Assembly (NCBI GenBank): GCA_041661545.1
Contig: JBAZUH010000001.1
Location: forward strand, 83,877 to 147,876
DNA length: 64,000 nt
Reading direction: 5' to 3'
Origin: Candidatus Staskawiczbacteria bacterium
GTDB taxonomy: Bacteria > Patescibacteriota > Minisyncoccia > Minisyncoccales > Staskawiczbacteraceae
The position numbers were made by a program, and so were the translations under genes. Positions 146 through 63,556 of this stretch are shown in pieces; position 1 is the first letter of the stretch, and every line of letters starts with the position of its first letter. The notes below the pieces were generated by a model, which saw only the letters and a list, made by a program, of their open reading frames with translations, did not search any database and had not been told where the DNA came from.

Positions 146-174
146 TTGACAATAGGCTTATATTATGCTATAAT
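146..174 (+). promoter_or_regulatory. Consensus sigma70-type promoter of GC-rich cassette A
   Basis: TTGACA 146-151, 17-nt spacer, extended -10 TGcTATAAT 166-174. Confidence 0.75.
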
Positions 175-180
175 AAATAT

Positions 181-382
181 ATAGGATAAATTGACAGCAA
201 CTTGAAAACATAGCTAGTGAGTACAGTTTCTTGCGCCTCGCCTTGCGGGGCATAGAAAACTGTATTCACTACGAATTCAGTAAGCCATCTGTAGGCTTTG
301 ATTAGCTTAACGTCGACTCGCCGAAAGGCAATAAAGTTTTTATCGACGTTGGTTAAACAGAAAGACCAAACCATTAAATATC
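181..382 (+). ncRNA. Structured 5' leader RNA, copy A (unclassified family, homologous to 9427-9629)
   Basis: About 200 nt homologous to the second copy. Helices 217-230/255-269, 282-286/294-298 and 307-316/343-356 plus a GAAA-loop hairpin 320-329. Two helices covary between copies. Confidence 0.6.
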
Positions 383-634
383 GTGAAAACAGCAAAATTG
401 GAAACCGTGATCGCCGCCGGACCAGTTCCGGTAAAACAGAATCGCCGGCGTGCCTACGGCTGGCAATTTACGGTGACGGGACGTATTGTCACCGACTTCG
501 CGACGATCCGGGAAGGTGATGTTGTCCGTGCCCAATACTTGGGTGGAAACGGAATCCTGCAGGTGGAGCACCGGAAAGCTCTGGGCATCACAGCCGAGGA
601 CGGATACGACGTTTCGGTTCAGATTGTCGCCTGA
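383..634 (+). CDS. Orphan 83-aa protein (GTG start), GC-rich cargo ORF 1 of cassette A
   Basis: Open frame directly after the leader with coding-like codon pattern. No recognisable motif. Overlapping ORFs in other frames are expected from the high GC. Confidence 0.45.
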   Translation: MKTAKLETVIAAGPVPVKQNRRRAYGWQFTVTGRIVTDFATIREGDVVRAQYLGGNGILQVEHRKALGITAEDGYDVSVQIVA

Positions 635-786
635 ATTCAAATTTTCCGGCTTTTTGAAAATCCGGCTGGCTAAGCAGTAAACTTAGAAAGAGGGTTTCTT
701 GCAACCAGAATGCAAGATGACTTGGAGGCTTCAAAGTAACCTCCGACCAATTGAGCTCTTAAATTTATTTGAGGGTTCATAGGTTG
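635..786 (+). promoter_or_regulatory. 3' hairpin series ending in cassette-end module, copy 1
   Basis: Hairpins 646-665, 671-687, 698-718 and 724-745, then CCAAT-TTGAGCTCTTAAATTTATTTGAGGGTTCATAGGTTG (747-786). Confidence 0.55.
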
Positions 787-815
787 TAGCACATTTCAAA
801 AATTTAGAATAAAAT

Positions 816-964
816 CTTGTGGTGTATTTTGGAAATAAAAATTGTTTCTAAAATACACCGCAAGACAACTTGTTTTAATTTCGAAAGGGTTCCAAAATGG
901 AGCTCTTGGCACAAACGCGCCATAGAAATATCAAGATAAGTATTCCCTTGCGGTGTATTTCACC
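816..964 (+). promoter_or_regulatory. Putative translational switch upstream of cargo ORF 2
   Basis: CTTGYGGTGTATTT occurs at 816-830 and 947-960, with its complement at 850-864. The third copy ends 5 nt before the ATG. Confidence 0.4.
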
Positions 965-1354
965 ATGTTCACAAAAGAAAAAATGATGCAACTGATCGGC
1001 CACCTTAAGGCCGCCGGGGTGGCTCTGATGAGTCTACCAATTAATAATCCACTCCGCTGGAGTGGGCTGGCGGTCAACCCGTGGAACGTAACCTCGGGCT
1101 GCCCCGAGAACAACCCATTGATGGCGCTTTGCTCCGCAGCGGGATGGGACGAACAAAACTCTTCTCAAATGAAGTGGGACGATATTCGGGTTTCCCTCGA
1201 GCCTATCGATGTGAAAATCTGGGGTCCGGGGGGCGTTCGTTGCGCCACCGTGCAGGTAGTGCCACGTCGTGGTCGACTTGTCGCTCAATTCTTCGTCACC
1301 GAAGAAGAAGGAGAGGAACTTGTTGTTGGGTTCACCGCACAAGTTGGGGATTAG
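965..1354 (+). CDS. Orphan 129-aa protein, GC-rich cargo ORF 2 of cassette A
   Basis: ATG at 965 inside track ORF 953..1354. Acidic C-terminus, no recognisable motif. Confidence 0.45.
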   Translation: MFTKEKMMQLIGHLKAAGVALMSLPINNPLRWSGLAVNPWNVTSGCPENNPLMALCSAAGWDEQNSSQMKWDDIRVSLEPIDVKIWGPGGVRCATVQVVPRRGRLVAQFFVTEEEGEELVVGFTAQVGD

Positions 1355-1527
1355 CCTTGGAAATCCTCATGGGTTAAATAAACACCCATCGAAAAAAGTT
1401 CTAAACCAGGCGGTTTCTAATTTCCGCGGAAAAAAATTGGCGCGTGTCTCTTGAAGACATCCCTTGCCAGGAGCGTTATTACCTGGTCGTTGACCCTTCC
1501 TTTAAATAGGTCGTGGTCCTTTCATGA

Positions 1528-1603
1528 GGAGCGAGTAGAGTTCCATCTCTGCCGCTCCTCCAATCACTTGAGCTCTTAAATTTATTTGAGGGTTCATAGG
1601 TTG
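1528..1603 (+). repeat. Cassette-end module, copy 2
   Basis: Hairpin GGAGCG/CGCTCC 1528-1558, CCAAT, then a 36-nt block (1568-1603) identical to 751-786. Confidence 0.7.
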
Positions 1604-1610
1604 AAAGATT

Positions 1611-1636
1611 AAAAAACCCCCGAAAGGGGATTTTTT
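1611..1636. terminator. Bidirectional terminator (cassette A / recR)
   Basis: A-run, hairpin cccccgaaagggg, T-run. Confidence 0.75.
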
Positions 1637-1652
1637 GTTGTGCGACAGTTGT

Positions 1653-6492: not shown

Positions 6493-8181
6493 ATGGAACA
6501 AGAAACACGTCAGTGCCAAACATGTAAAAAAGATTTTGAAACAAGGCCTGCGGATTTAACTTTTTATGAGCAGATAAAAGTTCCTTCACCAAAGCTCTGT
6601 CCACCTTGTCGCATGGAAAGACGTTTGGCTTTTAGAAATGAAAGAACCCTTTACCGTAGAACTTGTGATTTGTGTAAAAAAGAGGGCGTTTCTTTGTACC
6701 CAAACGGAACCCCTTTTCCAGTTTATTGCCATAAATGCTGGTGGAGTGATGGATGGGATCCTGTTTCTTTTGCTATGGATTGGGATAAATCCAGGCCATT
6801 TTTTGATCAGTTTTTAGAATTGAAAAATAAAGTACCGCGAATTGCTTTACTTGTTATAGACAGCATTAATAGCGATTACACAAATAACAGCGCTGAAAAT
6901 AAAAATTGTTATTTGCTTTTTGCGTCAGAAAATGATGAAGATTGCATCTATGGCAGGCTTATTCAGCGTTGCAAAACATCAGTTGATTGCACTTTTCTAT
7001 ATGACTCTGAACTTTGTTATGGGTGTACTGACTGCAAAAAATGTTTTAGGTGTATGTTCTCTGAGAGACTGCAAGATAGCATAGAGGTCCTTTTCTCTTT
7101 TGATATGCACAATTGCCAAAATTGTATTCTTTGCACCAATGGTCGCAATTTGAATTATTGTATTGAAAATAAACAATGCACTAAAGAAGAATTTGAAGCA
7201 AAAAAAGCAGAAATTTTTGTTAGTCACGATTCTATTGAAAAAGCCAAGGAAAGATATAGCGAATTACGGGCAAAAGCTGTTGTAAAATATGCTTCATCGA
7301 TAAAATGTAACGATGTTACTGGAGACTACATGTGGAACTGTCATGAAGGTGTGAACGTATTTGATTTTGGTAACTCAAAAAATTCATCTTATATTGCTGA
7401 TGGGGAAGATGCAATTGATTGTCACGACTGTAATAATCTTTATTTTAAGCCAGAGCGACTATATAACGTTATGGCAGCTTTGCAGAGTTCTAATTGCATT
7501 GTTGGAATTTATGATATGTATTGTAGTGAATCACAATATTTTGATAGTTGTTATAATTGCCAGAGTTGTTTTGGTTGTTGCGGATTAAATAAAAAAAAAT
7601 ATTATATTTTAAATAAAGAATATTCTAAAGAAAGATATCTTGAAATTAAAGAAGAAGTTGTAGCTCAAATGAAAAACGATGGCATATACGGAGAATTTTT
7701 TCCTGCGAAGCATTCACCATTTGGCCATAATGAAACATTAGCGCAAGAATATTTCCCAATTACTGAAAAAGAAGCTAAAGAAAAAGGTTTTAATTGGCAG
7801 AATCAAACCACAGGCACATATGGTAAGGAAACCATCAAAGAAGAAGACATGCCACAAACTATAGCAGAAGTTACAGGAGATATTGTAAATCAGGTTTTGG
7901 TTTGTAAAGATTGTAAAAAGAATTTTAGAATCACAAAAGCTGAATTTGATTTTTATAAAAGAATGAATCTTCCATTGCCACATAAAGATTTTGAGTGTCG
8001 GCACCAAGATAGAATGAAAAAGCGTAATCCGCGTAAGTTATGGCATAGATCATGTATGTGTGAACTAAAAAATCATGCCCACGGCGAAGAAAAATGCTCA
8101 AGTGAATTTGAAACATCTTATGCTCCAGGTAGACCAGAGATAGTTTATTGTGAGCAGTGCTATCAGCAAGAAGTATCTTAA
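6493..8181 (+). CDS. Poly-cysteine double zinc-ribbon protein, paralog 1
   Basis: N- and C-terminal CxxC..FY..CPxCR modules, CxxC-rich duplicated core, C-terminal YAPGRPEIVYCEQCYQQEV. Paralogous to 27454-32582. Confidence 0.8.
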   Translation: MEQETRQCQTCKKDFETRPADLTFYEQIKVPSPKLCPPCRMERRLAFRNERTLYRRTCDLCKKEGVSLYPNGTPFPVYCHKCWWSDGWDPVSFAMDWDKSRPFFDQFLELKNKVPRIALLVIDSINSDYTNNSAENKNCYLLFASENDEDCIYGRLIQRCKTSVDCTFLYDSELCYGCTDCKKCFRCMFSERLQDSIEVLFSFDMHNCQNCILCTNGRNLNYCIENKQCTKEEFEAKKAEIFVSHDSIEKAKERYSELRAKAVVKYASSIKCNDVTGDYMWNCHEGVNVFDFGNSKNSSYIADGEDAIDCHDCNNLYFKPERLYNVMAALQSSNCIVGIYDMYCSESQYFDSCYNCQSCFGCCGLNKKKYYILNKEYSKERYLEIKEEVVAQMKNDGIYGEFFPAKHSPFGHNETLAQEYFPITEKEAKEKGFNWQNQTTGTYGKETIKEEDMPQTIAEVTGDIVNQVLVCKDCKKNFRITKAEFDFYKRMNLPLPHKDFECRHQDRMKKRNPRKLWHRSCMCELKNHAHGEEKCSSEFETSYAPGRPEIVYCEQCYQQEVS

Positions 8182-9314: not shown

Positions 9315-9341
9315 AAAAAACCGCTGTTGAGGCGGTTTTTT
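9315..9341 (+). terminator. dnaX terminator, left copy of a duplicated terminator
   Basis: aaaaaaccgctgttgaggcggtttttt, nearly identical to 10363-10389. Confidence 0.75.
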
Positions 9342-9391
9342 GTTGCACAAAACAAACAATGGGCCCTTAGGCTGAAACGGGCGGCTATGAC

Positions 9392-9420
9392 TTGACAAGC
9401 CTACTTAAATATGCTATAAT
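9392..9420 (+). promoter_or_regulatory. Consensus sigma70-type promoter of GC-rich cassette B
   Basis: TTGACA 9392-9397, 17-nt spacer, TGcTATAAT 9412-9420. Confidence 0.75.
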
Positions 9421-9426
9421 GAATAT

Positions 9427-9629
9427 ATAGGATAAATTGACAGCAATTTGAAAATATACTAAGTGAATGCAGGTTTTTGCGTATTGCCCAGTGCAGTGCA
9501 TAGCAACCTGTATTCACTACGAATTCAGGGAGCTACCGTAAGCTCTGATTAATTTAACGTCGAATAGCCGAAAGGCATTGGAAAACTTTTCCGACGTTGG
9601 TTAAAGCGGAAATACAGAACAACCGAATC
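9427..9629 (+). ncRNA. Structured 5' leader RNA, copy B
   Basis: Homologous to 181-382. Helices 9463-9474/9506-9517, 9530-9534/9541-9545 and 9554-9562/9592-9604. Confidence 0.6.
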
Positions 9630-10190
9630 ATGAAAATATCGTTTAAATACGAGCAAACCCGTAGCAATATCGTTCGTTTTGCGCTTCGCAATGGGGCGGA
9701 TTCGAGCACGATGTTGAAAATCAGTGGCCTCGTTATCCCGCAGATTGCGGAGGCGGACTTCGCCTCCCTCGAAATCTGCGAGGGGGACGAAACCACGGTG
9801 TGGGACGCCCGTGCGGGATTGGTAGACCTGCTCGCCAGCAGGTGGGGTCTCTGCCAGAGTCAATGGGGCCGGCGAGTGGAGATTTCCACGAGCTGTGGGA
9901 AGCTCGTCGGGTCGACTTCGTCAGCCGAGGATATTTCCATTGATGCCATTGGTGACGTGGTTATCCGCGGATTTCGGCCGGAAACCTACGAGGGGGCGTA
10001 CAACGCCTACCTCGAAGGAACTGGCTGGTCCCTCGAGAAGACCGAAGGGCATTGGGAAATCGAGAAGGTGAAGTCCACTCTCGGCGAATTCTCATCGTTG
10101 GAGGACTACGAGCAAGCCCGTGTCAACGACGGCATGGGTTGCCGGTATCTGGAGCTTGAGGCTCCTGAGCCCGAGAAGATGCCCGCCTGA
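9630..10190 (+). CDS. Orphan acidic 186-aa protein, GC-rich cargo ORF of cassette B
   Basis: ATG at 9630. G-rich first and GC-rich third codon positions (GAG, GCC, GGC, CTC codons). No recognisable motif. Confidence 0.6.
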   Translation: MKISFKYEQTRSNIVRFALRNGADSSTMLKISGLVIPQIAEADFASLEICEGDETTVWDARAGLVDLLASRWGLCQSQWGRRVEISTSCGKLVGSTSSAEDISIDAIGDVVIRGFRPETYEGAYNAYLEGTGWSLEKTEGHWEIEKVKSTLGEFSSLEDYEQARVNDGMGCRYLELEAPEPEKMPA

Positions 10191-10325
10191 GTTCGTCTTT
10201 TTCCGGCTTTATGAAAAGCCGGCATGGGTATTGAGATCGTATCTCGAATACCTCGGGTCCTAACCCCGCGTGTGGCAATACGCCATTAATGGAGAACACG
10301 ATAAAGTTCTCCCCATTATTGAGCT
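10191..10325 (+). promoter_or_regulatory. 3' hairpin series ending in cassette-end module, copy 3
   Basis: Hairpins 10203-10222, 10229-10252 and 10291-10312, then CCATTATTGAGCT (10313-10325). Collinear with 635-760. Confidence 0.55.
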
Positions 10326-10361
10326 AATAACAATTTGTTTTTATTTCATATTGGGTAAATT

Positions 10362-10389
10362 AAAAAAACCGCCGTTGAGGCGGTTTTTT
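10362..10389 (+). terminator. Cassette B terminator, right copy of the duplicated terminator
   Basis: aaaaaaaccgccgttgaggcggtttttt. Confidence 0.75.
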
Positions 10390-10511
10390 GGTTGGCTCAC
10401 TTGGCTAAATAATTTTAAGTAAAAAGTTTATTTAACAGAAAAAAGTTATCCACATACTTGTGTGTTCTAAAAAGGTTATAATAATATAATAATATTTACC
10501 TTTTTAAATTT

Positions 10512-15287: not shown

Positions 15288-15630
15288 TATATTTATGAAA
15301 CACTAAACTTGAAATTTGAAACTAATGTGTCAGATTTTAAGGTGGGTGCTTCAATTAATTATCTTGATAGTTCAAGATAAATGTTTATTTATTAAATGAT
15401 TCTAACCTACTTATACTATAATGATTGCACATCTTCCCTTGTAAAGCAAGAGAGACGTCAATATTGTGTCAACCCCGTCACTAATTTCAGCCAAGTTTAT
15501 TTGCACAGTGCAGTAATAAAAAAGACGAAGCAACTCCGCTCCGCTCCGTTTGTCATCGTGGTAGTAGAAAAATTATTGGTAAAATTAGTGAGGGGTTTCG
15601 CGCGGGTAAGGTAATTATAATTCCGCGCTC

Positions 15631-15666
15631 AAAAAAAGAGCCCCAGTAGTAGAGATTACTATGGGG
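15631..15666 (-). terminator. Terminator of GC-rich cassette C
   Basis: Minus-strand hairpin ccccatagtaat...tactactgggg followed by a U-run. Confidence 0.6.
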
Positions 15667-15686
15667 TAAACGCAAAAGCGCATAAA

Positions 15687-16058
15687 TCAGTGGACGCCGT
15701 TGCCCCAGGGAGTCTGCAGGCAGGCTTTGCGCCTGGCTTTCATTTTTGCCACTTGCCTTTTGATGGCGGTGACTGCGGGCCTTTCGCGCTGGAGAAGAAA
15801 GGTGTGTGGATGGATTTGTCCCTTGCCTTCTTGGCTCCAAATGCAGACGTCAATTTTCAAAGTGTGCCGGCTGTTCCAGAAATTCTGCGCTTCTTTGAAT
15901 GAGCACTCCCACAGGTAGTGGCGTTTGCCATCGGAGCATCTCTGCCAGAAGCCATCGATGACATTGGGGAGATTCTTTGCAATAACTTCGTTGGCGTGCG
16001 CTACATCTTTGCCGGTTGGTTCGATAAACCATCTATGAAACCTTGTTGTGTTGGCCAT
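15687..16058 (-). CDS. Orphan 123-aa protein, GC-rich cassette C
   Basis: ATG at 16058 downstream of minus-strand promoter TTGACA (16131-16126)-N17-TATTGT. Coding-like codon pattern, no motif recognised. Confidence 0.5.
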   Translation of the reverse strand: MANTTRFHRWFIEPTGKDVAHANEVIAKNLPNVIDGFWQRCSDGKRHYLWECSFKEAQNFWNSRHTLKIDVCIWSQEGKGQIHPHTFLLQRERPAVTAIKRQVAKMKARRKACLQTPWGNGVH

Positions 16059-20336: not shown

Positions 20337-20354
20337 AAGAGATCGATATTCACA

Positions 20355-20433
20355 AAGGGGGTCGGGGAAATTGGGTATTTCCCCGTGTAGGAAATTATTC
20401 AAAACCGTGGGTTTTGAAGGAGCGAGCCAGAAC
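20355..20433 (+). repeat. Two-hairpin repeat element, copy 1 (after gyrB)
   Basis: 52 nt identical to 23265-23316. Hairpins cggggaaat/atttccccg and ttcaaaacc/ggttttgaa, ending in GAGCGAGCCAGAA. Confidence 0.8.
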
Positions 20434-20460: not shown

Positions 20461-20493
20461 GCGATAAGGCGAGCGACAATATAGACATCTAAA
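20461..20493 (+). pseudogene. Diverged duplicate of the gyrB 3' end (..DKASDNIDI*)
   Basis: aataTAgaCatctaa versus the true end aataTCgaTatctaa. Encodes the same NIDI-stop. Confidence 0.55.
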
Positions 20494-21551: not shown

Positions 21552-21770
21552 TATGGCTCGGCAACAAATTTTTCTACGCTCGGAATTTCTGCACGAGAAG
21601 CACAGCGTCGTCTAAAATTGTATTTTAAATCTATACAATTTTATCCGCGCTTCTCACTCGGTGCCCACAACGGGGCACCTGCGTGAAGTCATTCTCTTAG
21701 CAGAAATCCCTCGCTTAGTTTATTGCCTCGCTAAAATTTATTTGGCTCGCTACGAATTCATTATCTCGCT
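21552..21770 (+). repeat. CTCGCT-box structured repeat, copy R1
   Basis: CGCTCGG + arm ggaatttctgc ... gcagaaatcc + CCTCGCT, then tandem TTYATTNNCTCGCT boxes at ~19-nt spacing. Confidence 0.65.
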
Positions 21771-21807
21771 TTGAAAATTAACAAATTTATTGAAAATTCC
21801 AAAAAGC

Positions 21808-23264: not shown

Positions 23265-23343
23265 AAAGGGGGTCGGGGAAATTGGGTATTTCCCCGTGTA
23301 GGAAATTATTCAAAACAGAGGGTTTTGAAAGAGCGAGCCAGAA
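23265..23343 (+). repeat. Two-hairpin repeat element, copy 2 (after rplK)
   Basis: Same element as 20355-20433. Confidence 0.8.
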
Positions 23344-23348
23344 TAGGC

Positions 23349-23385
23349 GCGCGATAAAAAGATGGGAGTAGACGTAACAAACTAA
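23349..23385 (+). pseudogene. Diverged duplicate of the rplK 3' end (..KKMGVDVTN*)
   Basis: aagatgggagtagacgtaacaaactaa versus the true end aacatgggcgtagatgtaataaactag. Followed by a terminator at 23402-23432. Confidence 0.55.
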
Positions 23386-23488
23386 ATTACAAATTTAGAA
23401 ACAACCCTTTAATCGGGGTTGATTTTTGTTTTGGCGAAATGGTAGAATAATTTTAACCACTAACTGAACATTGAAAAGGAGAGAGAAC

Positions 23489-27453: not shown

Positions 27454-29217
27454 ATGGAATATCAGTCGGAAACAAAAAATTGTCAAAATTGTAAGCAAGA
27501 CTTTGTCATAGAGCCTGATGATTTTGCGTTTTATGAAAAAATGAAAGTACCTGCACCAACCTGGTGCCCAGAGTGTAGATTCAGGCGCAGAATTATATGG
27601 AGAAATGAACGTAAATTATTCCGTGGCAAGAGCGCCTTAAGTGGAAAAAATCTTTTCACGCTTTTTTCTCCGGAATCAGGATATACAATTTACCATAATG
27701 AGGAATGGTGGGGAGGATATGATCCGCTTGTTTATGGACAAGAGGTAGATTTTACGCGACCATTTCTAACTCAACTTTTTGAATTAAACAAAAAAGTTCC
27801 CAAACCATCTGGAAGTAGAATAAGAATGGCTAACAGTGAGTATTCTGATAACGCTTCTGACCTTAAAAATTGTTACTTACTTTTTAATTCTAACTTTACC
27901 GAGGACAGCGCATATGGAAACGGCATAGACCATTGCCAACTCTGTTTTGACAATTCCCATATTCAAAACTGTGAACGATGTTACCATTCTTTTTGGTTAA
28001 CAAATTGTTATCAAGCTCATTTTTCTTCTAGATGTGAGGACTGTACAAATATTTGGTTTTCAAAAGATTGTCGAAGTTGCAATAATTGTATTGGTTGTGT
28101 AAATTTACGTACAAAAAATTATTGCATTTTTAATGAGCAATATTCAAAAGAAGAGTACCTTACCAAACTTAAAGAATTTAATTTTTATTCCTGGAAAAAC
28201 GTTGTTCAAATGAATAAAAATGCTAAAGAATTTTGGCTCAAGTTTCCTAATAAGTTTATGCAAGGAATAAAAAACCAGAATGTGTCGGGCGAATTTATTA
28301 CGCACTCTAAAAATGTTTTAGATAGCTATCTTATAAGAGAAAGCGAAAATTTACGTTATGTGCAATATTCTCAAGTGCCCAGTTCAAAAGATTGCTATGA
28401 TTTATCACTTGGCGGGTGCAACGCCGAACAAATTTATGAATCCTCTGTTTGCGGTTGGGGAGCTTCTAATATTAAATTTTGTTGGGAATGCTGGCATGAA
28501 GCTTTTAACATGGAGTATTGCATGTATTGCCATGGTTCGTCTAATCTTTTTGGATGTTCAGGAGTACAAAAAAAGCAATATTGCATTTTGAATAAACAAT
28601 ACACAAAAGAAGAATATGAGGCAATGGTTTTAAAAATAAAAAAGCACATGGACAATATGCCTTACATGGACAAATTGGGAAGGGTTTATAAATATGGCGA
28701 ATTTTTTCCTGTAGAAGCTTCGCCTCACGCTTATACAAGTAGTATCTCTCCAGATCATTTTCCTTTAACAAAAGAAGAAGCGCTTTTGCAAGGGTTCCAT
28801 TGGGAAGATCCAAATCCTACAGAATATCAAACTACTAAAGATGCTAAAGAGCTCCCAGACAATGTTGAAGGCGTTGGCTTTGAAGTATTAAAAGAAATTT
28901 TAAAATGTGAAAAATGTGGTAAAGCTTATCGAATTATAGAACCAGAACTACAGTTTTTAAAACAAATAGGAATTTCTGTCCCGCATTGGTGTGTTGATTG
29001 CAGGCATAATGACCGTATAAGTCAAAGGAATAGGGCGGTATTTTATGACCGCATATGTCAGTGTAAAGGGAAGGAATCGGAAAATAAAATATATAAAAAT
29101 TTTGTAGCTCACTCGCATGATAAAAGCCCGTGCACAAATAAATTTAAAACATCGTATGCGCCAGATAGGCCCGAGATAGTTTATTGCGAGCGATGTTACC
29201 AACAAGAAGTAATATAA
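27454..29217 (+). CDS. Poly-cysteine double zinc-ribbon protein, paralog 2
   Basis: Same architecture as 6493-8181. Starts 3 nt after the thyA stop. Confidence 0.8.
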   Translation: MEYQSETKNCQNCKQDFVIEPDDFAFYEKMKVPAPTWCPECRFRRRIIWRNERKLFRGKSALSGKNLFTLFSPESGYTIYHNEEWWGGYDPLVYGQEVDFTRPFLTQLFELNKKVPKPSGSRIRMANSEYSDNASDLKNCYLLFNSNFTEDSAYGNGIDHCQLCFDNSHIQNCERCYHSFWLTNCYQAHFSSRCEDCTNIWFSKDCRSCNNCIGCVNLRTKNYCIFNEQYSKEEYLTKLKEFNFYSWKNVVQMNKNAKEFWLKFPNKFMQGIKNQNVSGEFITHSKNVLDSYLIRESENLRYVQYSQVPSSKDCYDLSLGGCNAEQIYESSVCGWGASNIKFCWECWHEAFNMEYCMYCHGSSNLFGCSGVQKKQYCILNKQYTKEEYEAMVLKIKKHMDNMPYMDKLGRVYKYGEFFPVEASPHAYTSSISPDHFPLTKEEALLQGFHWEDPNPTEYQTTKDAKELPDNVEGVGFEVLKEILKCEKCGKAYRIIEPELQFLKQIGISVPHWCVDCRHNDRISQRNRAVFYDRICQCKGKESENKIYKNFVAHSHDKSPCTNKFKTSYAPDRPEIVYCERCYQQEVI

Positions 29218-29221
29218 ATAT

Positions 29222-30901
29222 ATGGACCACCAATCAGAGACTAAAAATTGTCAGAATTGTAAACAAGACTTTGTAATAGAGCTTGATGATTTTGCATTTT
29301 ACGAAAAAATGAAAGTACCCGCACCAACTTGGTGTCCTGAGTGTAGACAATATCGGCGTTTTGTGTGGAGAAATGAGCGGAATTTATATCGTAGAGACTG
29401 TGATCTTTGTAAGAAAAGCATGATAACTATATATTCGTCTGATAAACCATATAAAGTTTACTGTCCAACGTGTTGGTGGAGTGATAAATGGTCTGCACTA
29501 GATTATGGTCAAGATTTTGATTTTTCTAAACCGTTTTTCCCGCAATTACAAGAGTTGCAACTCCAAGTTCCCAGAATTGCCCTTTTAACTAAAAATAGTA
29601 TTAATTCTGAATATACTAATCACGCAAATAACAATAAAAATTGTTATCTTTCTTTTGCTGTATTTGATTGTGAAGATATTCTTTATTCTAGCGAGATATT
29701 TGATCAAGCTAAGAGCCTATGCGATTGTTATAGGATAGAGCACGGAGGTAGCTTGCTTTATGAGTGTATCCATTCTGATAAATGTTACCAATGCCAATAC
29801 GGTATTTTTCTTAAAGATTGTATGGGCTGTATGTATTGTTATGATTGTCGCGGATGTCAAAATTGTTTTCTTTCTTCAAATTTACGCAATAAGCAATATT
29901 ATTTTTTAAATAAAAAATATACAAAAGAAGAATATGAAGAAAAAATCAAAAATTTTGATTTTAGCTCTTATGTTGTTCGAGCCAAATTATATAATGATTA
30001 TATAAATCTTATTAAAAATAAGTCTATTCATCGTTTTGCAATTATTGATAGATCTAATGATGTTACGGGTAACCTTATTATTAATTCTAAAAGAGCATAT
30101 CAATCTTTTGAAGTGAGCAACATGGAAGATACTAAATATTCAAGAGTTGCTACAGACGTAAAAGATTCGATGGATGGCTATAAAATGGGATTTCGTAGTG
30201 AGCTTATTTACGAATGTCATGCTTTAATTCATGATTATAACGTAATGTTTAGCCATTTAAGTTATGATAATTCTCATTTACAGTATTGTGATACTTGTCA
30301 TAACAGCGAAAATCTTTTTGGATGTGTATGTATGAAACAGGGGAGATACGCAATTTTAAATAAACAGTATTCTGAAAAAGAGTATTCTGTGTTGCGCGAA
30401 AAAATTATTGAACATATGAGAAACACAGGCGAATACGGAGAATTTTTTCCACCTAAGTTATCGCCATTTGGTTATGACGAAACACAGGGGCAAGTTCATG
30501 CACCTCTTACAAAAGAGAAAACATTGGAGTGGGGGTTTAAATGGTCGGGTAATCTGCCCGGAACGTTTGGTAAAGAAACATTAAAACCAGAAGAGATTAA
30601 AGATAGTATTAAAGACGTGGATGAAGGCATTCTTAAAGAAGCATTACGTTGTATAAAGTGTAAAAAGAATTATAATATTGTAAGGGCTGAGTTAGATTTT
30701 TATAAACACGAGAACATTCCTGTTCCACGAAAATGTCCAGATTGTCGTTATTTAGATCGTGTTGCTCTTCGTTTGCCGTGTAAGCTTTGGCACAGAAGAT
30801 GTATGAAACAAGGTTGCCAGAATGAATTTGAAACTCCTTACTCGCCAGATAGGCCCGAGATAGTTTATTGCGAGCAATGTTACCAACAAGAAGTAATATA
30901 A
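29222..30901 (+). CDS. Poly-cysteine double zinc-ribbon protein, paralog 3
   Basis: Same architecture, with a 4-nt gap to the previous gene. Confidence 0.8.
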   Translation: MDHQSETKNCQNCKQDFVIELDDFAFYEKMKVPAPTWCPECRQYRRFVWRNERNLYRRDCDLCKKSMITIYSSDKPYKVYCPTCWWSDKWSALDYGQDFDFSKPFFPQLQELQLQVPRIALLTKNSINSEYTNHANNNKNCYLSFAVFDCEDILYSSEIFDQAKSLCDCYRIEHGGSLLYECIHSDKCYQCQYGIFLKDCMGCMYCYDCRGCQNCFLSSNLRNKQYYFLNKKYTKEEYEEKIKNFDFSSYVVRAKLYNDYINLIKNKSIHRFAIIDRSNDVTGNLIINSKRAYQSFEVSNMEDTKYSRVATDVKDSMDGYKMGFRSELIYECHALIHDYNVMFSHLSYDNSHLQYCDTCHNSENLFGCVCMKQGRYAILNKQYSEKEYSVLREKIIEHMRNTGEYGEFFPPKLSPFGYDETQGQVHAPLTKEKTLEWGFKWSGNLPGTFGKETLKPEEIKDSIKDVDEGILKEALRCIKCKKNYNIVRAELDFYKHENIPVPRKCPDCRYLDRVALRLPCKLWHRRCMKQGCQNEFETPYSPDRPEIVYCEQCYQQEVI

Positions 30902-30905
30902 ATAT

Positions 30906-32582
30906 ATGGAGCATCAATTAGAAAATAAAAAATGTCAAAACTGCGAAAAAGATTTTACCATAGAGCTTGATGATTTTGCGTTTTATGAAAAAATGAAAGT
31001 ACCTGCACCCGTTAATTGCCCGAGATGTCGTTTTCAGTGGAGAACACTTTGGCGCAATGAAATGAATCTTTATAGCAGAAAGTGTGAGCTTTGTGGCAAA
31101 TCAATTGTGGCAATGTATAATCAAAACTCTCCTTACACCGTATATTGCCAAGATTGTTGGTTGTCTGATAGATGGAACCCCGCTGATTATGCAATGGACT
31201 ATGACGAGAGCAGGCCATTTTTTGATCAGGTAGGGGCGTTGTTGAAAAAAGTTCCCAAAGCCGGAACTTTTATTTCCAGCGATGTCGGAATAAATATAAA
31301 TACTGAATATGCAAATTTTGCCGGTGGTTTGAAGGATTGCTATCTAGTTTTTAACTCGAGCCCGGACGTAGAAAATTGTTGCTATTCAAGGGGTTTAACC
31401 CATTGCAAAGACGTCTTCGATGGTTACTCTCAAGATAAAGTTGAGAATGGGTATGAAGCCCTTAATGCGCATAATTCTGCTGGCATCATTCACGCTCAAA
31501 ATGTGAATGATTGTATTAATTGTTGGTATGTGCATAGTTGTTCCGGATGTCAGAATTGTTTTGGTTGCGTGAATTTGCGTCATAAATCATATTACTTTTT
31601 AAACCAGCCTCTCTCTAAGGAAGATTACGAGAAAAAAATAAAAGAAATAAAAGGAAGCTATGTAAAAATGGAGGCCTTTAAGAAAGATTTTAATGATCTG
31701 CTCTTGGTGTCACCGCACCGCGAGAACAATAATTTGAAAAGTCCAAAATCTTTTGGAGAATATATTTTTGAATCAAAAAATTGTCGGGATTCTTTCGAAG
31801 TCTCTTTTAGCGAAGATTCGCGTTATCTTTTTTCTAACAAATATGTTAAAGATTGCTATGACCTGCTTGGTCATGGGCGCCAGAGCGAACTGTTACTTGA
31901 TAACGTTGCAGTGGGCACCTCTCAAAGAGTCATTGGGTCTTGGTGGACAATAACTTCTCATGATATATTTTATAGTTTTGGTTTGCGCTCTTGTGAAGAT
32001 TGTTTTGGGTGTGATAGCTTAAGGAATGCTCGTTATTGTATTTTGAATAAGCAATATAGTGAGGAAGATTACAAAAAAATCAAAGAAAATATAATTGCAG
32101 AATTAAAAGAAAAAAATCTTTTTGGTTTATATTTTCCACCTTCAATCAGCCTATTTGCCTATAATGAAACTATTGGTCAAGATAATTATCCTCTCACCAA
32201 AGAAGAGGCTTTAAAATTAGGTTTTAGATGGGAGGATAACATGCAGATTACCAAAGGAAAAGAAACTATAAAAACATCAGATATTCCAGACCACATTAAA
32301 GATGTTGAAGAATCTATTTTAAAAGAGATTTTTGCCTGTAAAGATTGTGAGAGAAATTATAAAATAATACAAGCAGAATTCCAGTTCTATAAAAAAATTA
32401 ATTTGCCACTGCCTAGAAAATGTTTTTTTTGCAGGCATAATGATAGAATAAAAAGGCGAGGCCCAATGGAAATTTATGACAGAAAGTGCACTAAATGTGG
32501 CAAAGATATTAAAACAAATTATGCGCCAGATAGGCCCGAGATAGTTTATTGCGAGCGATGTTACCAACAAGAAGTAATATAA
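30906..32582 (+). CDS. Poly-cysteine double zinc-ribbon protein, paralog 4
   Basis: Same architecture, with a 4-nt gap to the previous gene. Confidence 0.8.
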   Translation: MEHQLENKKCQNCEKDFTIELDDFAFYEKMKVPAPVNCPRCRFQWRTLWRNEMNLYSRKCELCGKSIVAMYNQNSPYTVYCQDCWLSDRWNPADYAMDYDESRPFFDQVGALLKKVPKAGTFISSDVGININTEYANFAGGLKDCYLVFNSSPDVENCCYSRGLTHCKDVFDGYSQDKVENGYEALNAHNSAGIIHAQNVNDCINCWYVHSCSGCQNCFGCVNLRHKSYYFLNQPLSKEDYEKKIKEIKGSYVKMEAFKKDFNDLLLVSPHRENNNLKSPKSFGEYIFESKNCRDSFEVSFSEDSRYLFSNKYVKDCYDLLGHGRQSELLLDNVAVGTSQRVIGSWWTITSHDIFYSFGLRSCEDCFGCDSLRNARYCILNKQYSEEDYKKIKENIIAELKEKNLFGLYFPPSISLFAYNETIGQDNYPLTKEEALKLGFRWEDNMQITKGKETIKTSDIPDHIKDVEESILKEIFACKDCERNYKIIQAEFQFYKKINLPLPRKCFFCRHNDRIKRRGPMEIYDRKCTKCGKDIKTNYAPDRPEIVYCERCYQQEVI

Positions 32583-35232: not shown

Positions 35233-35361
35233 AACTTCGCTCGGCAGTCAATTTTCTGCTACCGCCATTGATACGCTTCGCGTCTAAATGGCTTAGTCAG
35301 GCACTTCGTGTCCTGAAATACGCTGAAAATTTACTGCCTCGCTCTACTTTATTGTTTCGCT
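35233..35361 (+). repeat. CTCGCT-box structured repeat, copy R2
   Basis: 35238-35343 differs from 58599-58704 at 3 positions over 106 nt. Confidence 0.8.
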
Positions 35362-36286: not shown

Positions 36287-36478
36287 TAGTTTTGATTATT
36301 TTTTCTTCGCTCAATAATGATTCTTTGCTAGCGTTCGCTCGCCAGCGCGGGCTCACTCAGGCTTCGGTAATTTTCCCGCTTCGCGGGACCAAGCAAAATT
36401 ACCTGCAGGGTACGCTTCGAATTCATTATCTCGCTTCGAAAAACTTTATTTGGCTCGCTTAAAAGTTCATTGCTTCGC
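36287..36478 (+). repeat. CTCGCT-box structured repeat, copy R3 (between miaB and miaA)
   Basis: Arms ggtaatttt/aaaattacc around cccgcttcgcggg, then boxes ttcattatctcgct, tttatttggctcgct and ttcattgcttcgct. Confidence 0.65.
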
Positions 36479-47527: not shown

Positions 47528-47564
47528 CATCATAATTTACGCTATCGCTGAAAATGTGATGTTG
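47528..47564 (+). repeat. 37-bp direct repeat / palindromic operator-like site, copy 1
   Basis: catcataatttacgctatcgctgaaaatgtgatgttg is identical to 48179-48215. Its 3' end overlaps a putative -35. Confidence 0.8.
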
Positions 47565-47621: not shown

Positions 47622-48161
47622 ATGAATAAAATTAGAGAAAATATATTGTTACTTCTAATGGGCGGTTTGGCCCTTGGGTGTAGTTATACGCCCCAAATGC
47701 AAGGTAGGGTGTTAAAAATGGCCTATAAAGAATGGAGAAAAATAAATCGTAAAGATCTTAAGAGAGGCATCGATTATTTATATAGATTGAAATATATTGA
47801 TAAAAAAGGCGGTGGAAATGATATAGGCGATTTAACACTAACACAAAAGGGCAGATTAAAATCTTTAGACTTTCGACTTAATAATTTAAAAAATCAAAAA
47901 GAGAAATGGGATGGGAAATGGAGAATGGTTGCTTTTGATATTCCAGAAAAATATAAACAAGGAAGAGATGCCTTGCGCAATAAATTGAAAAGTATTGGGT
48001 TCCGTGAATTGCAGAAGAGCGTTTTTATTGTACCTTACAACTGCAAAGAGGAAATAGTGCTTTTGGTTGAATTGTTCAAATTGGGAAAATATGTTCGTTT
48101 TGGAGTTTTGGAATTTATTGATAACGAAAATTATTTGAAAAGTTTATATAAAATTAGTTAA
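47622..48161 (+). CDS. PaaX-like / winged-helix regulator family protein
   Basis: WDGKWRMVAFDIPEKYKQGRDALRNKLKSIGFRELQKSVFIVP motif. Confidence 0.5.
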   Translation: MNKIRENILLLLMGGLALGCSYTPQMQGRVLKMAYKEWRKINRKDLKRGIDYLYRLKYIDKKGGGNDIGDLTLTQKGRLKSLDFRLNNLKNQKEKWDGKWRMVAFDIPEKYKQGRDALRNKLKSIGFRELQKSVFIVPYNCKEEIVLLVELFKLGKYVRFGVLEFIDNENYLKSLYKIS

Positions 48162-48178: not shown

Positions 48179-48215
48179 CATCATAATTTACGCTATCGCT
48201 GAAAATGTGATGTTG
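48179..48215 (+). repeat. 37-bp direct repeat, copy 2
   Basis: Identical to 47528-47564. Confidence 0.8.
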
Positions 48216-56561: not shown

Positions 56562-57254
56562 ATGGATTTTGAAATTTTAGAAAAAAAATTAGGAGTAAAA
56601 TTTAATGATAAGAATCTTTTAAAGCATGCTTTTACGCATAGGTCTTATTTAAATGAAAATCCTGATTTAAAATTAGAGCATAATGAAAGGTTAGAATTTT
56701 TAGGAGATGCTGTTATGGAATTAATTGTAACAGAGCATCTTTATAAAGAATTTCCAGAAAAAGCAGAAGGAGATTTAACTAATTGGAGAGCAGCCTTGGT
56801 TAATGCAAAAATGTTAACTAGTGTTGCAAAAGAATTAGAATTTAATGACTTTCTTTTGCTTTCTAAGGGTGAATCTAAAGAAATGGGCAAAGCCAGAGAT
56901 TATATATTAGCCAACACCTTTGAAGCATTTTTAGGAGCATATTATTTAGATTCTGGATTTAAACCGTGTGATGAATTTATAAGAAAGAATTTATTAAAAA
57001 ATTTAGCAGAAATTATAAGAGATGGTTCTTATAAAGATGCTAAATCAAAGTTTCAGGAAGAAGCTCAAGAAAGAGTTTCTATAACACCAAATTATAAAGT
57101 TATAAAAGAGTCTGGCCCCGATCACGAAAAAAGTTTTGTAGTGGGAGTATATTTAGAAGAAGAATTGGTTGCCGAAGGCATGGGGTCTTCAAAGCGTGAA
57201 GCAGAATCTGCGGCAGCAGAGTTGGCCCTAGAAGTAAAAAAATGGGGAAAATAA
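56562..57254 (+). CDS. rnc: Ribonuclease III
   Basis: NERLEFLGDAV signature and a dsRBD C-terminus. Confidence 0.95.
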   Translation: MDFEILEKKLGVKFNDKNLLKHAFTHRSYLNENPDLKLEHNERLEFLGDAVMELIVTEHLYKEFPEKAEGDLTNWRAALVNAKMLTSVAKELEFNDFLLLSKGESKEMGKARDYILANTFEAFLGAYYLDSGFKPCDEFIRKNLLKNLAEIIRDGSYKDAKSKFQEEAQERVSITPNYKVIKESGPDHEKSFVVGVYLEEELVAEGMGSSKREAESAAAELALEVKKWGK

Positions 57255-58575: not shown

Positions 58576-58741
58576 GATCTTTGCTCGGGCATCTTTATCG
58601 CTCGGCAGTCAATTTTCTGCTAACGCCATTGATACGCTTCGCGTCTAAATGGCTTGGTCAGGCACTTCGTGTCCTGAAATACGCTGAAAATTAACTGCCT
58701 CGCTTAGTTTATTGCCTCGCTATAAATTTTTTATCTCGCTT
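58576..58741 (+). repeat. CTCGCT-box structured repeat, copy R4
   Basis: Near-identical to R2, followed by boxes tttattgcctcgct and ttttttatctcgct. Confidence 0.8.
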
Positions 58742-58751
58742 AAAATCTAAT

Positions 58752-59435
58752 ATGATAAAGTTCGATGTAATTACAATTTTTCCAGAAATGTTTGGCTCTT
58801 ATTTAAAAGAGAGTTTGATTTCGCGTGCACAGAAAAAAAAGTTTATAAAAGTTAATTTACATAATTTAAGAAAATGGACAACCGACAATCATAAAACAGT
58901 TGATGGTAGGCCCTTTGGCGGGGGATTGGGAATGGTATTAAAAGTAGAGCCAATATATAAGTCTGTAAAGTTTATAAAGTCAAAAGCTAAAAGTCAAAAA
59001 ACTAAAATTATACTTTTTACGCCAAGGGGAGAAAAGTTTAATCAAAAATTAGCTTATAAGTTATCAAAATTAGATCAAATAATTTTTATTTGTGGAAGAT
59101 ACGAGGGCGTAGATGAAAGAGTGGCAGAAAAAATTGCTGATATGCAAATTTCTATTGGTGACTATGATTTAATGGGTGGTGAATTGCCCGCAATGGTAGC
59201 AATAGAAACTATTTCAAGATTAGTTTCTGGAGTAATTGGCAAAGAACAGTTGCTCAAAGAAAGGGTATCAAAAACAGGTGGATTTTTAGAATATGCTCAA
59301 TATACGCGCCCAGAAGTTTATAAAGTTCGTAAAGTTAATAAAGTTGAAAGTTGGCGAGTGCCGGAGGTTTTATTGTCGGGAGATCATAAAAAAATAGACG
59401 AATGGAAAAAATTACACGGCAAGGTTATTGAATAA
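58752..59435 (+). CDS. trmD: tRNA (m1G37) methyltransferase
   Basis: FDVITIFPEMF, GRYEGVDERV, SIGDYDLMGGELPA. Confidence 0.95.
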   Translation: MIKFDVITIFPEMFGSYLKESLISRAQKKKFIKVNLHNLRKWTTDNHKTVDGRPFGGGLGMVLKVEPIYKSVKFIKSKAKSQKTKIILFTPRGEKFNQKLAYKLSKLDQIIFICGRYEGVDERVAEKIADMQISIGDYDLMGGELPAMVAIETISRLVSGVIGKEQLLKERVSKTGGFLEYAQYTRPEVYKVRKVNKVESWRVPEVLLSGDHKKIDEWKKLHGKVIE

Positions 59436-62925: not shown

Positions 62926-63480
62926 ATGAATAACGTATCAAGATGGATATTGATCAGTTTGTCGGCCGGTTTAGTTGCCGTTATAGGCAGCGGCTGGATT
63001 CACAAAAACCTCCAAGATACGGAAGTGAGGGCCTATACTCAGGCCTCGCTCCGAGAGACCGCCAACATCCTCGTGAAGAAAGCCAAGCCGTACATGATGG
63101 ACGTGGATTACTACGTGTACTCCATTAGGCTCCGCGAGCTGGAGAACCGCCCGATATTTGATCGGGTGGATGCTGAAATTCTCCGTGTCGGTGACAGCTA
63201 TGAGGATGTCGCCGCCGACGTCGTGGCGCAACTGCGACACGCCGGGTTCAGCGACACTGAGATTGAGGAGCTCTGGAGTGCCCAGTGGAAGGTTCGGCTC
63301 ATGTCCACCTGCTGGCAGGTGGATGAGTTCAAGGGGATCGTTTTGGACGGTGACAAGCCGGCCAAGAGGTGCACCCTGGAGGAGCTTTGTCGGCTTCAGT
63401 CGGCTGAATTTCTCCCTGCTAAAGCAGAACTCGACCGACTCCTCGCGGAGGCGAAGATGCCCGTCGTGCTGGTTGAATAA
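62926..63480 (+). CDS. Orphan 184-aa membrane-anchored protein, GC-rich cassette F
   Basis: ATG at 62926, N-terminal TM WILISLSAGLVAVIGSGWI, strongly GC-rich third codon positions, no motif recognised. Confidence 0.6.
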   Translation: MNNVSRWILISLSAGLVAVIGSGWIHKNLQDTEVRAYTQASLRETANILVKKAKPYMMDVDYYVYSIRLRELENRPIFDRVDAEILRVGDSYEDVAADVVAQLRHAGFSDTEIEELWSAQWKVRLMSTCWQVDEFKGIVLDGDKPAKRCTLEELCRLQSAEFLPAKAELDRLLAEAKMPVVLVE

Positions 63481-63520
63481 GCCGGTTCATGCGCTGGGGA
63501 GAAGTCCTCCTCAGCGCCCG

Positions 63521-63556
63521 CCCCTTAGTAAAACTCTTTACTATTGGGGCTTTTTT
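63521..63556 (+). terminator. Cassette F terminator
   Basis: cccc...gggg extended hairpin plus T-run, preceded by a second hairpin at 63491-63517. Confidence 0.65.

Follow-up and report, generated by a model that had tools for sequence, protein, structure and literature searches.

A 64,000-nucleotide (nt) stretch of DNA from Candidatus Staskawiczbacteria (hereafter the window) carries, among its core genes, GC-rich orphan genes that end in a recurrent pair of abutting hairpins, which we call the module. Its three copies stand in the 3' untranslated regions (3'UTRs) of three open reading frames (ORFs), namely A1 and A2, which lie together at locus A, and B. We tentatively favor, at a little less than even confidence, the reading that the module is an RNA structure of the sense strand, that is, the terminal 3'UTR double stem-loop of horizontally acquired units, which would likely serve as a stabilizer or processing boundary. 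The module is read as an RNA element because it folds specifically on the sense strand and holds four to five G.U pairs in locus A.

All three copies have a common architecture (Table 1). More specifically, the first hairpin (HP4) has a stem of 5–8 base pairs (bp) starting with GGAG and is followed, with zero spacing, by a two-tier hairpin (HP5) whose outer stem of 3–5 bp is separated by a small internal loop from an inner stem beginning with UUGAGCU. The outer stem pairs GACC with GGUU in A1 and CAAUC with GGUUG in A2, and takes the form CCC..UGGG in B; the inner stem in locus A comprises 12 bp (U752-A779), three of which are G.U pairs. An earlier reading of this DNA from its letters alone (the sequence-only reading) had described three GGAG..CTCC hairpins with stems that differ between copies. 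These are present where it placed them, with an 8-bp stem in A2, and their stems do vary in sequence yet keep their pairing. Two of its details are revised: the proposed 11-bp hairpin is the 12-bp inner stem, and the 'CCAAT/CCATT' taken for a motif is the 5' strand of the outer stem, which pairs with ..GGUUG or ..UUGGG.

The 36-mer TTGAGCTCTTAAATTTATTTGAGGGTTCATAGGTTG occurs exactly twice in the window, at 751–786 and 1568–1603, with no occurrence expected in shuffles, as the sequence-only reading had claimed. Counted from 740/1557, the repeat reaches 47 nt at 94% identity. Its three differences change a G.U to an A-U pair, a C-G to a U.G pair in the outer stem and one internal-loop or bulge base; on the predicted fold they are neutral to structure, three substitutions being too few for statistics. 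The two adjoining HP4 hairpins, 21 nt and 35 nt long, show no relation to each other, while the 36-mer is 100% identical including its loops and tails. What the B copy has in common with the A copies is TTGAGCT (10319–10325), TTCATA and the fold only, in a looser third version of the 36-nt part (10319–10354); neither B nor the HP4 hairpins could be aligned by MAFFT. We consider the B module a diverged homologue of the A modules, judging by layout and these short matches.

Neither TTGAGCT (14 occurrences in the window) nor GAGCTCTT (nine) is diagnostic by itself. The composite of a GGAG hairpin, at most 10 nt and TTGAGCT is found only three times, always within the 3'UTR of a GC-rich ORF. The claim of a module present three times holds for the composite, and the B copy is diverged rather than identical. 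The module had also been said to mark the right boundary of the GC-rich sequence; it does stand at the 3' end of each GC-rich unit, 8–23 nt upstream of an intrinsic terminator (A2, B), or else at the A1/A2 junction. The module itself is not listed by the terminator scan, which finds the real terminators at 1610–1639 and 10363–10390; unlike an intrinsic terminator, it is not a GC-rich stem with an immediate U tract by that scan.

At locus A the fold depends on the strand. The A1 module folds at −23.1 kcal/mol in the sense orientation (z-score −3.4) versus −13.7 kcal/mol in antisense (z −1.1), and the A2 module at −41.0 kcal/mol (z −7.0) versus −22.5 kcal/mol (z −1.8). The module of B is AU-rich and reaches −17.6 kcal/mol (z −3.3). 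As single-stranded DNA, the 36-mer forms a top-strand hairpin of −2.5 kcal/mol and none on the bottom strand. In their entirety, the 3'UTRs consist of four to six hairpins in a row, with z-scores of −4.8 for A2, −4.6 for B, and −5.0 and −6.7 for L001 and L002, two loci with related cargo.

The units to which the module belongs come with their own expression signals. A1 and B appear to be complete transcription units on a homologous (paralogous) backbone and, being paralogous copies of that one backbone, both carry the module. Both promoters are perfect sigma-70 promoters (TTGACA, 17 nt, TGnTATAAT), and the 84% identity between A1 and B spans promoter and leader. Promoter and terminator scans find neither signal between A1 and A2, so that A1-A2 is predicted to be a single transcript ending at the terminator at 1610–1639. 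The similarity enters the first codons (ATGAAAATATCG in B, ATTAAATATCG in A1) and returns over the final codons and stop (CGCCTGA), behind which a 23-nt hairpin (HP1) is located; between these shared ends the ORF bodies are unalignable. HP1 is 21/23 identical between A1 and B (23/25 by blastn), and the degenerate pattern TTCCGGCTTTWTGAAAAKCCGGC matches only the two HP1 sites (644–666 and 10201–10223) in the window, against 0.01 matches expected. With their own strong promoter and terminator, single small gene and deviant GC, such units resemble phage morons; unlike morons, they lie among core chromosomal genes (recR, dnaB, dnaX) rather than in a prophage and have long conserved structured leaders and trailers.

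The leader is about 165–200 nt long. Its first hairpin, P1, has internal loops, and the GCC-GAAA-GGC hairpin lies within a three-way region. Folding z-scores are −3.9 (A1) and −3.7 (B), and among 48 consensus pairs between the two copies five show compensatory changes on both sides, five a one-sided change and none is broken. A covariance model (R1) built from the two copies detects the leader of L003/L004 at 39.8 bits (E 2e-8). This best match precedes a 53%-identical cargo homologue from another metagenome, and weak matches are found at two further homologues. The GAAA-tetraloop hairpin motif GCCGAAAGGCAAU is present in the leader or trailer of all these loci. By its covariation, we regard the leader as a real structured RNA and as a candidate for a new cis-regulatory RNA. 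The 5' leader is no more complementary to the 3' module than shuffled sequences are.

The region ahead of A2 holds two further hairpins. In the first, a perfect 24-bp hairpin at 815–865, the 3' strand (AAAAUACACCGCAAG) can instead pair with CUUGCGGUGUAUUU (947–960), which abuts the A2 start codon; this alternative pairing is a possible translational switch or RNase III processing site. The second, at 885–907, rebuilds the duplex of the module inner stem with the strands in swapped order. Here, a partial module copy had been reported at 899–906. The match is really at 900–907, where GAGCTCTT is at chance level as an 8-mer but pairs with AAGGGTTCCA (885–894), so that what stands is the swapped-order duplex. 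The window has no other AGGGTTC..GAGCTCTT arrangement, and roughly 0.005 would be expected by chance. A duplex that occurs in both strand orders would fit recognition of double-stranded RNA, or the decay of tandem module copies, more readily than it would fit a recombinase core.

Table 1. Features of locus A, unit B and related sites (window positions unless a contig is named).
Feature	Position	Strand	Details
Promoter of A1-A2 unit	146-174	+	TTGACA, 17-nt spacer, TGcTATAAT; 12/12 sigma-70 consensus, extended -10
Structured 5' leader of A1	199-360	+	long hairpin P1, small P2, P3 with GCC-GAAA-GGC tetraloop hairpin
A1 cargo ORF	383-634	+	83 amino acids (aa), GTG start; NCBI MFA6189968.1; GC 0.56, GC3 0.60
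Post-stop hairpin HP1 of A1	644-666	+	TTCCGGCTTTTTGAAAATCCGGC, shared with B
HP4 of A1	724-744	+	GGAGG 724-728, 11-nt loop, CCUCC 740-744
HP5 of A1	745-786	+	outer stem 745-748/782-785; inner 12 bp 752-763/768-779; 36-nt copy 1
24-bp perfect hairpin, A2 5' region	815-865	+	fold z -7.8; repeat CTTGTGGTGTATTT / CTTGCGGTGTATTT
Swapped-order hairpin	885-907	+	AAGGGUUCCA/UGGAGCUCUU; -12.2 kcal/mol, z -3.2
A2 cargo ORF	965-1354	+	129 aa; NCBI MFA6189969.1; GC3 0.58; without own promoter
HP4 of A2	1526-1560	+	GAGGAGCG/CGCTCCTC at 1526-1533/1553-1560; 8 bp plus inner 6-bp stem
HP5 of A2	1561-1603	+	outer stem 1561-1565/1599-1603; 36-nt copy 2
Intrinsic terminator of A1-A2 transcript	1610-1639		convergent with recR
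Left copy, unit B repeat	9315-9342	+	dnaX intrinsic terminator; 27/28 identical to 10363-10390, spacing 1048
Promoter of unit B	9392-9420	+	12/12 plus TG
Structured 5' leader of B	9445-9608	+	homologous to A1 leader
B cargo ORF	9630-10190	+	186 aa; NCBI MFA6189977.1; GC3 0.70
Post-stop hairpin HP1 of B	10201-10223	+	
Module of B	10291-10354	+	HP4 10291-10312 (GGAGAAC 10291-10297/GTTCTCC 10306-10312), HP5 10313-10354
Terminator of unit B	10363-10390	+	right copy of bracketing repeat
GC-rich orphan ORF	15687-16055	-	GC3 within 0.58-0.70 range
37-nt repeat, left copy	47528-47564	+	37/37 identical to right copy, spacing 651
37-nt repeat, right copy	48179-48215	+	directly upstream of rnhB ribosome-binding site
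GC-rich orphan ORF	62926-63480		GC3 within 0.58-0.70 range
Leader in relatives	L003 8-180; L004 178-350		

The cargo ORFs differ from their host in composition. Overall GC of the window is ~35%, and its core genes comprise recR, dnaB, cysS, dnaX, purA, pheS, gyrB, secE-nusG-rplK, dnaE, rnhB, rnc and rplJ-rplL, together with five tRNAs; recR, dnaB, cysS and dnaX are the neighbors of the loci described here. Small islands of 50–58% GC are scattered over this AT-rich background, and five of them are short ORFs, in which GC at third codon positions (GC3) is 0.58–0.70 versus 0.18–0.25 in adjacent host genes. GC at first codon positions (GC1) also exceeds that at second positions (GC2), as in true coding sequence. 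This pattern identifies the five as genuine genes of foreign composition rather than GC-rich non-coding RNA. Besides A1, A2 and B, they include two orphan units (15687–16055 and 62926–63480), each with its own promoter, which have neither leader nor module and possess a similar terminator (CCCCWTAGTAA..TACTAYTGGGGCTYTTTTT; 15630–15670 on the minus strand and 63511–63555).

The A1, A2 and B proteins are annotated as hypothetical (WC711_00415, WC711_00420 and WC711_00460) in a Candidatus Staskawiczbacteria metagenome-assembled genome, on a contig of 737,971 bp, and none has a significant match in Pfam. In a set of 5.8 billion proteins, A1 and A2 are each a singleton. For B, a k-mer search gave three close homologues and a profile search ten proteins, and its homologues are all on Patescibacteria-like contigs, in differing gene neighborhoods. 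Over its N-terminal 70 residues, B bears a weak likeness to repeats in Ig/PKD-rich giant proteins and in a phage minor tail protein, and the AlphaFold model of the family (pLDDT 43) is too poor for a fold search. Homology of A1 and A2 to the B family is not significant; a faint C-terminal likeness (RKA..DV.V) is only suggestive. In the homologue genomes the flanking genes have ~50% GC, so that the cassette looks foreign only in this AT-rich host. As for the module, L001, with a cargo 63% identical, has CUUUUGAGUUCUUUCAAGGGUUAACA after a GC-rich hairpin at the equivalent 3'UTR position, and L002 keeps the module only partly, as a hairpin and then AGUUCUUU...AAGAGGGG. The module would be an old yet dispensable part of the cassette backbone.

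Searches for known families and prior descriptions were negative. Screening ~45 ORFs against Pfam, which covers nearly all window ORFs of at least 110 aa, revealed no integrase, transposase, reverse transcriptase or Cas1, and neither A2 nor any other screened ORF matched a Y1 (HUH) transposase or REP-associated tyrosine transposase (RAYT; REP, repetitive extragenic palindrome). Rfam 15, applied to the whole window at gathering score and to both loci at E<=5, returned tRNAs and noise only, with nothing credible on leader or module. The leader 19-mer GTATTCACTACGAATTCAG had one chance coding-region match in each of the two large collections searched with it (genome_contigs and metagenome_contigs), neither of which includes the source contig, and no further copies. 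The module sequence was searched in viral contigs only, where it, a leader 16-mer and the GCCGAAAGGCAATGG motif gave unrelated matches only. By blastn, locus A had no match in the phage collection, nor unit B in the plasmid collection. The full-text literature yielded no description of the leader, the module or the bracketing pattern described below. Exact look-ups of the recR, rnhB, A2 and PaaX-like proteins, made for empty sites, returned no record, and the other contigs covering the locus, L012 and L014, are both from the same sample.

Six further identities were considered for the module and dropped: group II intron domain V (GAGC...GGUUC), T-box, attC, dif/Xer site, tRNA-like T-arm and DNA-uptake sequence. 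Each was rejected because its defining sequences are missing, because Rfam gives no match, or because the window has just two copies of GCCGAAAGGC. Separately, CGCCGAAAGGCAATGG lies within tRNA-like sequences (..GGGATCGAG[G/T]CC-motif-..GGTTCGAATCC) of viral contigs L026, L027 and L029, as might result from an insertion or a long extra arm in the tRNA genes of phages.

Single genes in the window are bracketed by direct repeats. A short-range direct-repeat scan, with paralogous genes set aside, identified three such units. The first is A2, bracketed by the 36-mer (36/36 identity, spacing 817); the identity has sharp edges, and the enclosed 781-bp segment contains one promoterless ORF with its own structured 5' region. 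The second is the whole of unit B, from promoter to 3'UTR, which lies between two copies of the dnaX terminator, the right copy being the terminator of B. The third is a gene for a 179-aa protein with a PaaX_M (Pfam)/Cas2-like domain (47622–48161), located between a promoter and rnhB and bracketed by the 37-nt repeat CATCATAATTTACGCTATCGCTGAAAATGTGATGTTG, an imperfect 11-bp hairpin with a TTG tail. Each of the three repeats (28–37 nt) is a local hairpin with a short 3' tail ending in TTG, and their sequences are mutually unrelated; they therefore look like copies of local targets rather than one element-borne site. In L002, an unrelated metagenome contig with a B homologue, a HicB-HicA pair is bracketed by a perfect 30-mer (883–912/1478–1507), which begins right after the cassette terminator, ends in TTGG and folds no better than shuffles. 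The Logan contig L014 stops at window position 780. Because a k=31 graph must break at 780 if the 36-mer has two left contexts, the repeat is not the artefact of one assembly.

Other repeats were found in the window. A 79-nt structured element, with copies 96% identical, follows the stop codons of gyrB (20354–20432) and rplK (23265–23343). A diverged second copy of the last 9–10 codons and stop of the respective gene is found 13–30 nt past it (20462–20491 and 23357–23386). The element has no Rfam hit and looks like a small insertion at gene 3' ends, bringing with it or duplicating the end of the gene. Another repeat, 107 nt long, 97% identical and closed by the stem GGCAGU...ACUGCC, occurs after gatB (35237–35343) and before trmD (58598–58704); arrays of a CTCGCT motif adjoin it (21704–21777, 36413–36442 and 58693–58753), and the repeat could be a further structured RNA or an array bound by protein. 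Four cysteine-rich, paralogous ORFs of ~560–590 aa (6493–8181, 27454–29217, 29222–30901 and 30906–32582), three of them in tandem, have no Pfam match, and their DNA 3' ends are 91–100% identical.

Taken together, these observations would fit a small Patescibacteria family of self-contained units, each made of a promoter, a leader, an orphan ORF, a multi-hairpin 3'UTR and an intrinsic terminator. We hypothesize that the stacked hairpins of the module block 3'-to-5' exonucleases and thereby set a stable 3' end. In A2 and B the module would act just upstream of the terminator, and after A1 in the intercistronic gap, where cleavage downstream of it would release an A1 mRNA with the module as its cap. 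One candidate cleavage site is the 24-bp hairpin ahead of A2, as it resembles an RNase III substrate and an RNase III gene is present at 56562–57254. As for the DNA, we infer that the promoterless A2 arrived behind the A1 module in an event after which hairpin-plus-tail stood on both flanks, in the same bracketing pattern as around unit B and the PaaX-like gene. An RNA element that was duplicated and a landing pad may both be true descriptions of the module. Of the functions offered in the sequence-only reading (recombination site, RNA processing or stability element, protein-binding site), the RNA element is favored by the sense-strand fold, the G.U pairs and the predicted promoter-to-terminator transcript; recombination, which the sharp-edged exact repeat around A2 suggests, is less likely. 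Its term 'cassette' suits A2 alone, which looks like an inserted promoterless cassette, and not A1 and B, which are predicted to be complete transcription units.

The closest precedents for the proposed role are REPs and bacterial interspersed mosaic elements (BIMEs), as well as other 3' or intercistronic stem-loops such as the E. coli malE-malF REP. Like these, the module is a repeated, imperfect palindrome of ~30–40 nt in extragenic DNA predicted to be transcribed, located at gene 3' ends or between cistrons, whose structure counts on the transcript strand. REPs and BIMEs occur in tens to hundreds of copies per genome and have an associated RAYT gene. The module, in contrast, has three copies in the 64 kb of the window, out of a genome of 738 kb, one of them diverged and the other two identical; it comes with no RAYT/Y1 hit in the screened ORFs and is tied to one family of foreign units, always behind a second abutting hairpin.

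Several points weigh against the RNA reading. REP and other 3' stem-loops provide the analogy on which the stabilizer role leans. For the B module, both strands fold equally well, and the entire A1 3'UTR barely folds better than shuffles (z −1.9). Two of just three modules are identical over 36 nt, which leaves thin covariation support for HP5. L003, the most distant cargo homologue, is without a module and L002 has it in part, so that the module is not essential to the unit. Finally, selection on an RNA fold alone cannot keep loops and tails 100% identical, and the exact 36-mer needs a separate explanation at the DNA level.

One such explanation joins both levels. The module would be an RNA 3'-end structure as well as the landing pad of an undescribed mode of single-gene acquisition in Patescibacteria, in which genes insert immediately 3' of a hairpin where a transcription unit ends (or starts), duplicating the hairpin and its short tail ending in TTG (28–37 nt), with the enzyme encoded elsewhere. 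We consider this extended proposal quite unlikely as it stands. The repeats can be compared with att sites, target-site duplications and Cas1-Cas2 or casposase repeats, in that 28–37-nt direct repeats flank the insert and a local palindrome with a short tail is duplicated. They differ from these in the absence of integrase or Cas1 from the screened ORFs, in single-gene inserts of 0.6–1 kb without terminal inverted repeats and in variable repeat lengths. The structure-guided insertion proposed here, whose target duplication would be long and about the size of the palindrome, can be likened to repeat duplication by Cas1-Cas2, except that it would deliver whole genes.

The main rival, a purely DNA-level alternative which we judge unlikely, is that the module is a cis-acting att-like recombination site, with one hairpin-plus-core site per cassette: a circular A2 would have joined the site at the end of A1 via a recombinase encoded elsewhere, as integrons or integrative elements do, leaving identical 36-bp cores on the two sides. 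A sharp-edged exact repeat around a promoterless single-ORF segment of 781 bp is what such an event would leave, and A2 has its own, different GGAG hairpin and linker before the shared core, as with two partner sites. Two more single-gene units in the window, as well as HicAB in L002, are likewise flanked by 28–37-nt direct repeats; however, the bracketing repeats at the three window sites are unrelated and look target-derived, and the 'core' of B has just 7 + 6 nt in common with that of A. The succession of outer stem, internal loop and inner stem also recalls the R-box and L-box of attC, and the loci resemble integron cassettes in having a promoter-leader platform followed by one or two foreign orphan ORFs, each ending in a two-stem hairpin site. 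Against this likeness, no R'' (RYYYAAC) or R' (GTTRRRY) core is present in 700–800, 1500–1610 or 10270–10395, the nearest sequences being GTTGAAA and GTTGTAG; the outer stem of the module is CAA(U)C/G(G)UUG, and its DNA hairpin is weak (just −2.5 kcal/mol) and restricted to the sense strand. Moreover, no Phage_integrase, transposase or Cas1 was hit in the ORFs screened, only two sites are in tandem, A1 and B each come with a promoter and a terminator, and the repeated core measures 36 nt instead of 7 nt.

The module could instead be functionless, a residue of homology between the A1 and B 3'UTRs, with the second 36-mer a neutral by-product of a duplication or insertion and the GGAG hairpin of A2 a coincidence. 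We hold this to be rather improbable. The absence of the module from L003 and its partial form in L002, the commonness of the 7-mer TTGAGCT, the AU-rich and weak module of B, and an exact identity that indicates recency rather than selection all agree with such an origin. It does not account for an identical two-hairpin architecture with zero spacing in three places with differing stems, nor for the sense-strand-specific fold, the structure-preserving substitutions of the 47-mer and the recurrence of the duplex in swapped order at 885–907.

Very unlikely, in our estimate, is that the module forms the 5' part of a small RNA (sRNA) derived from the 3'UTR, or a protein or RNase binding site, what is recognized being the duplex GAGCUCUU/AAGGGUUC, of which the A transcript has three copies. 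A2 and B do run from hairpin through an A/U-rich spacer to terminator, the typical sRNA layout, and the duplex occurs in either strand order; B, however, is without this duplex, and both the target and the binding protein are only hypothetical.

The least probable view, to which we give very little credence, takes the 36-mers for the left and right top-strand hairpins of a non-autonomous element like IS200/IS605 (IS, insertion sequence) or REP, with A2 as passenger: strand-specific hairpins outside genes, at gene 3' ends, flank a small passenger on both sides in direct orientation, with G.T pairs tolerated, as in IS200/IS605 and palindrome-associated transposable elements, but the screened ORFs have no Y1/HUH transposase (TnpA) or RAYT hit, just two identical copies occur in the 64 kb, identity exceeds the hairpin, and the diverged, single module of B and the terminator repeat around B are left unexplained.

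Patescibacteria have tiny genomes with few recognizable mobile elements, and their uptake of genes is poorly understood; to our knowledge, almost no cis-regulatory RNAs have been described in them. The loci described here are fully equipped foreign genes amid core replication genes, with a promoter, a conserved structured leader and a structured trailer, and they come with a recurrent signature of single genes framed by a perfectly repeated local hairpin. Should the module prove to be an RNA 3'-end element, module and leader together would add a new candidate cis-regulatory RNA for the phylum, and if one mechanism lies behind the bracketing repeats, it would constitute a new route of gene capture.

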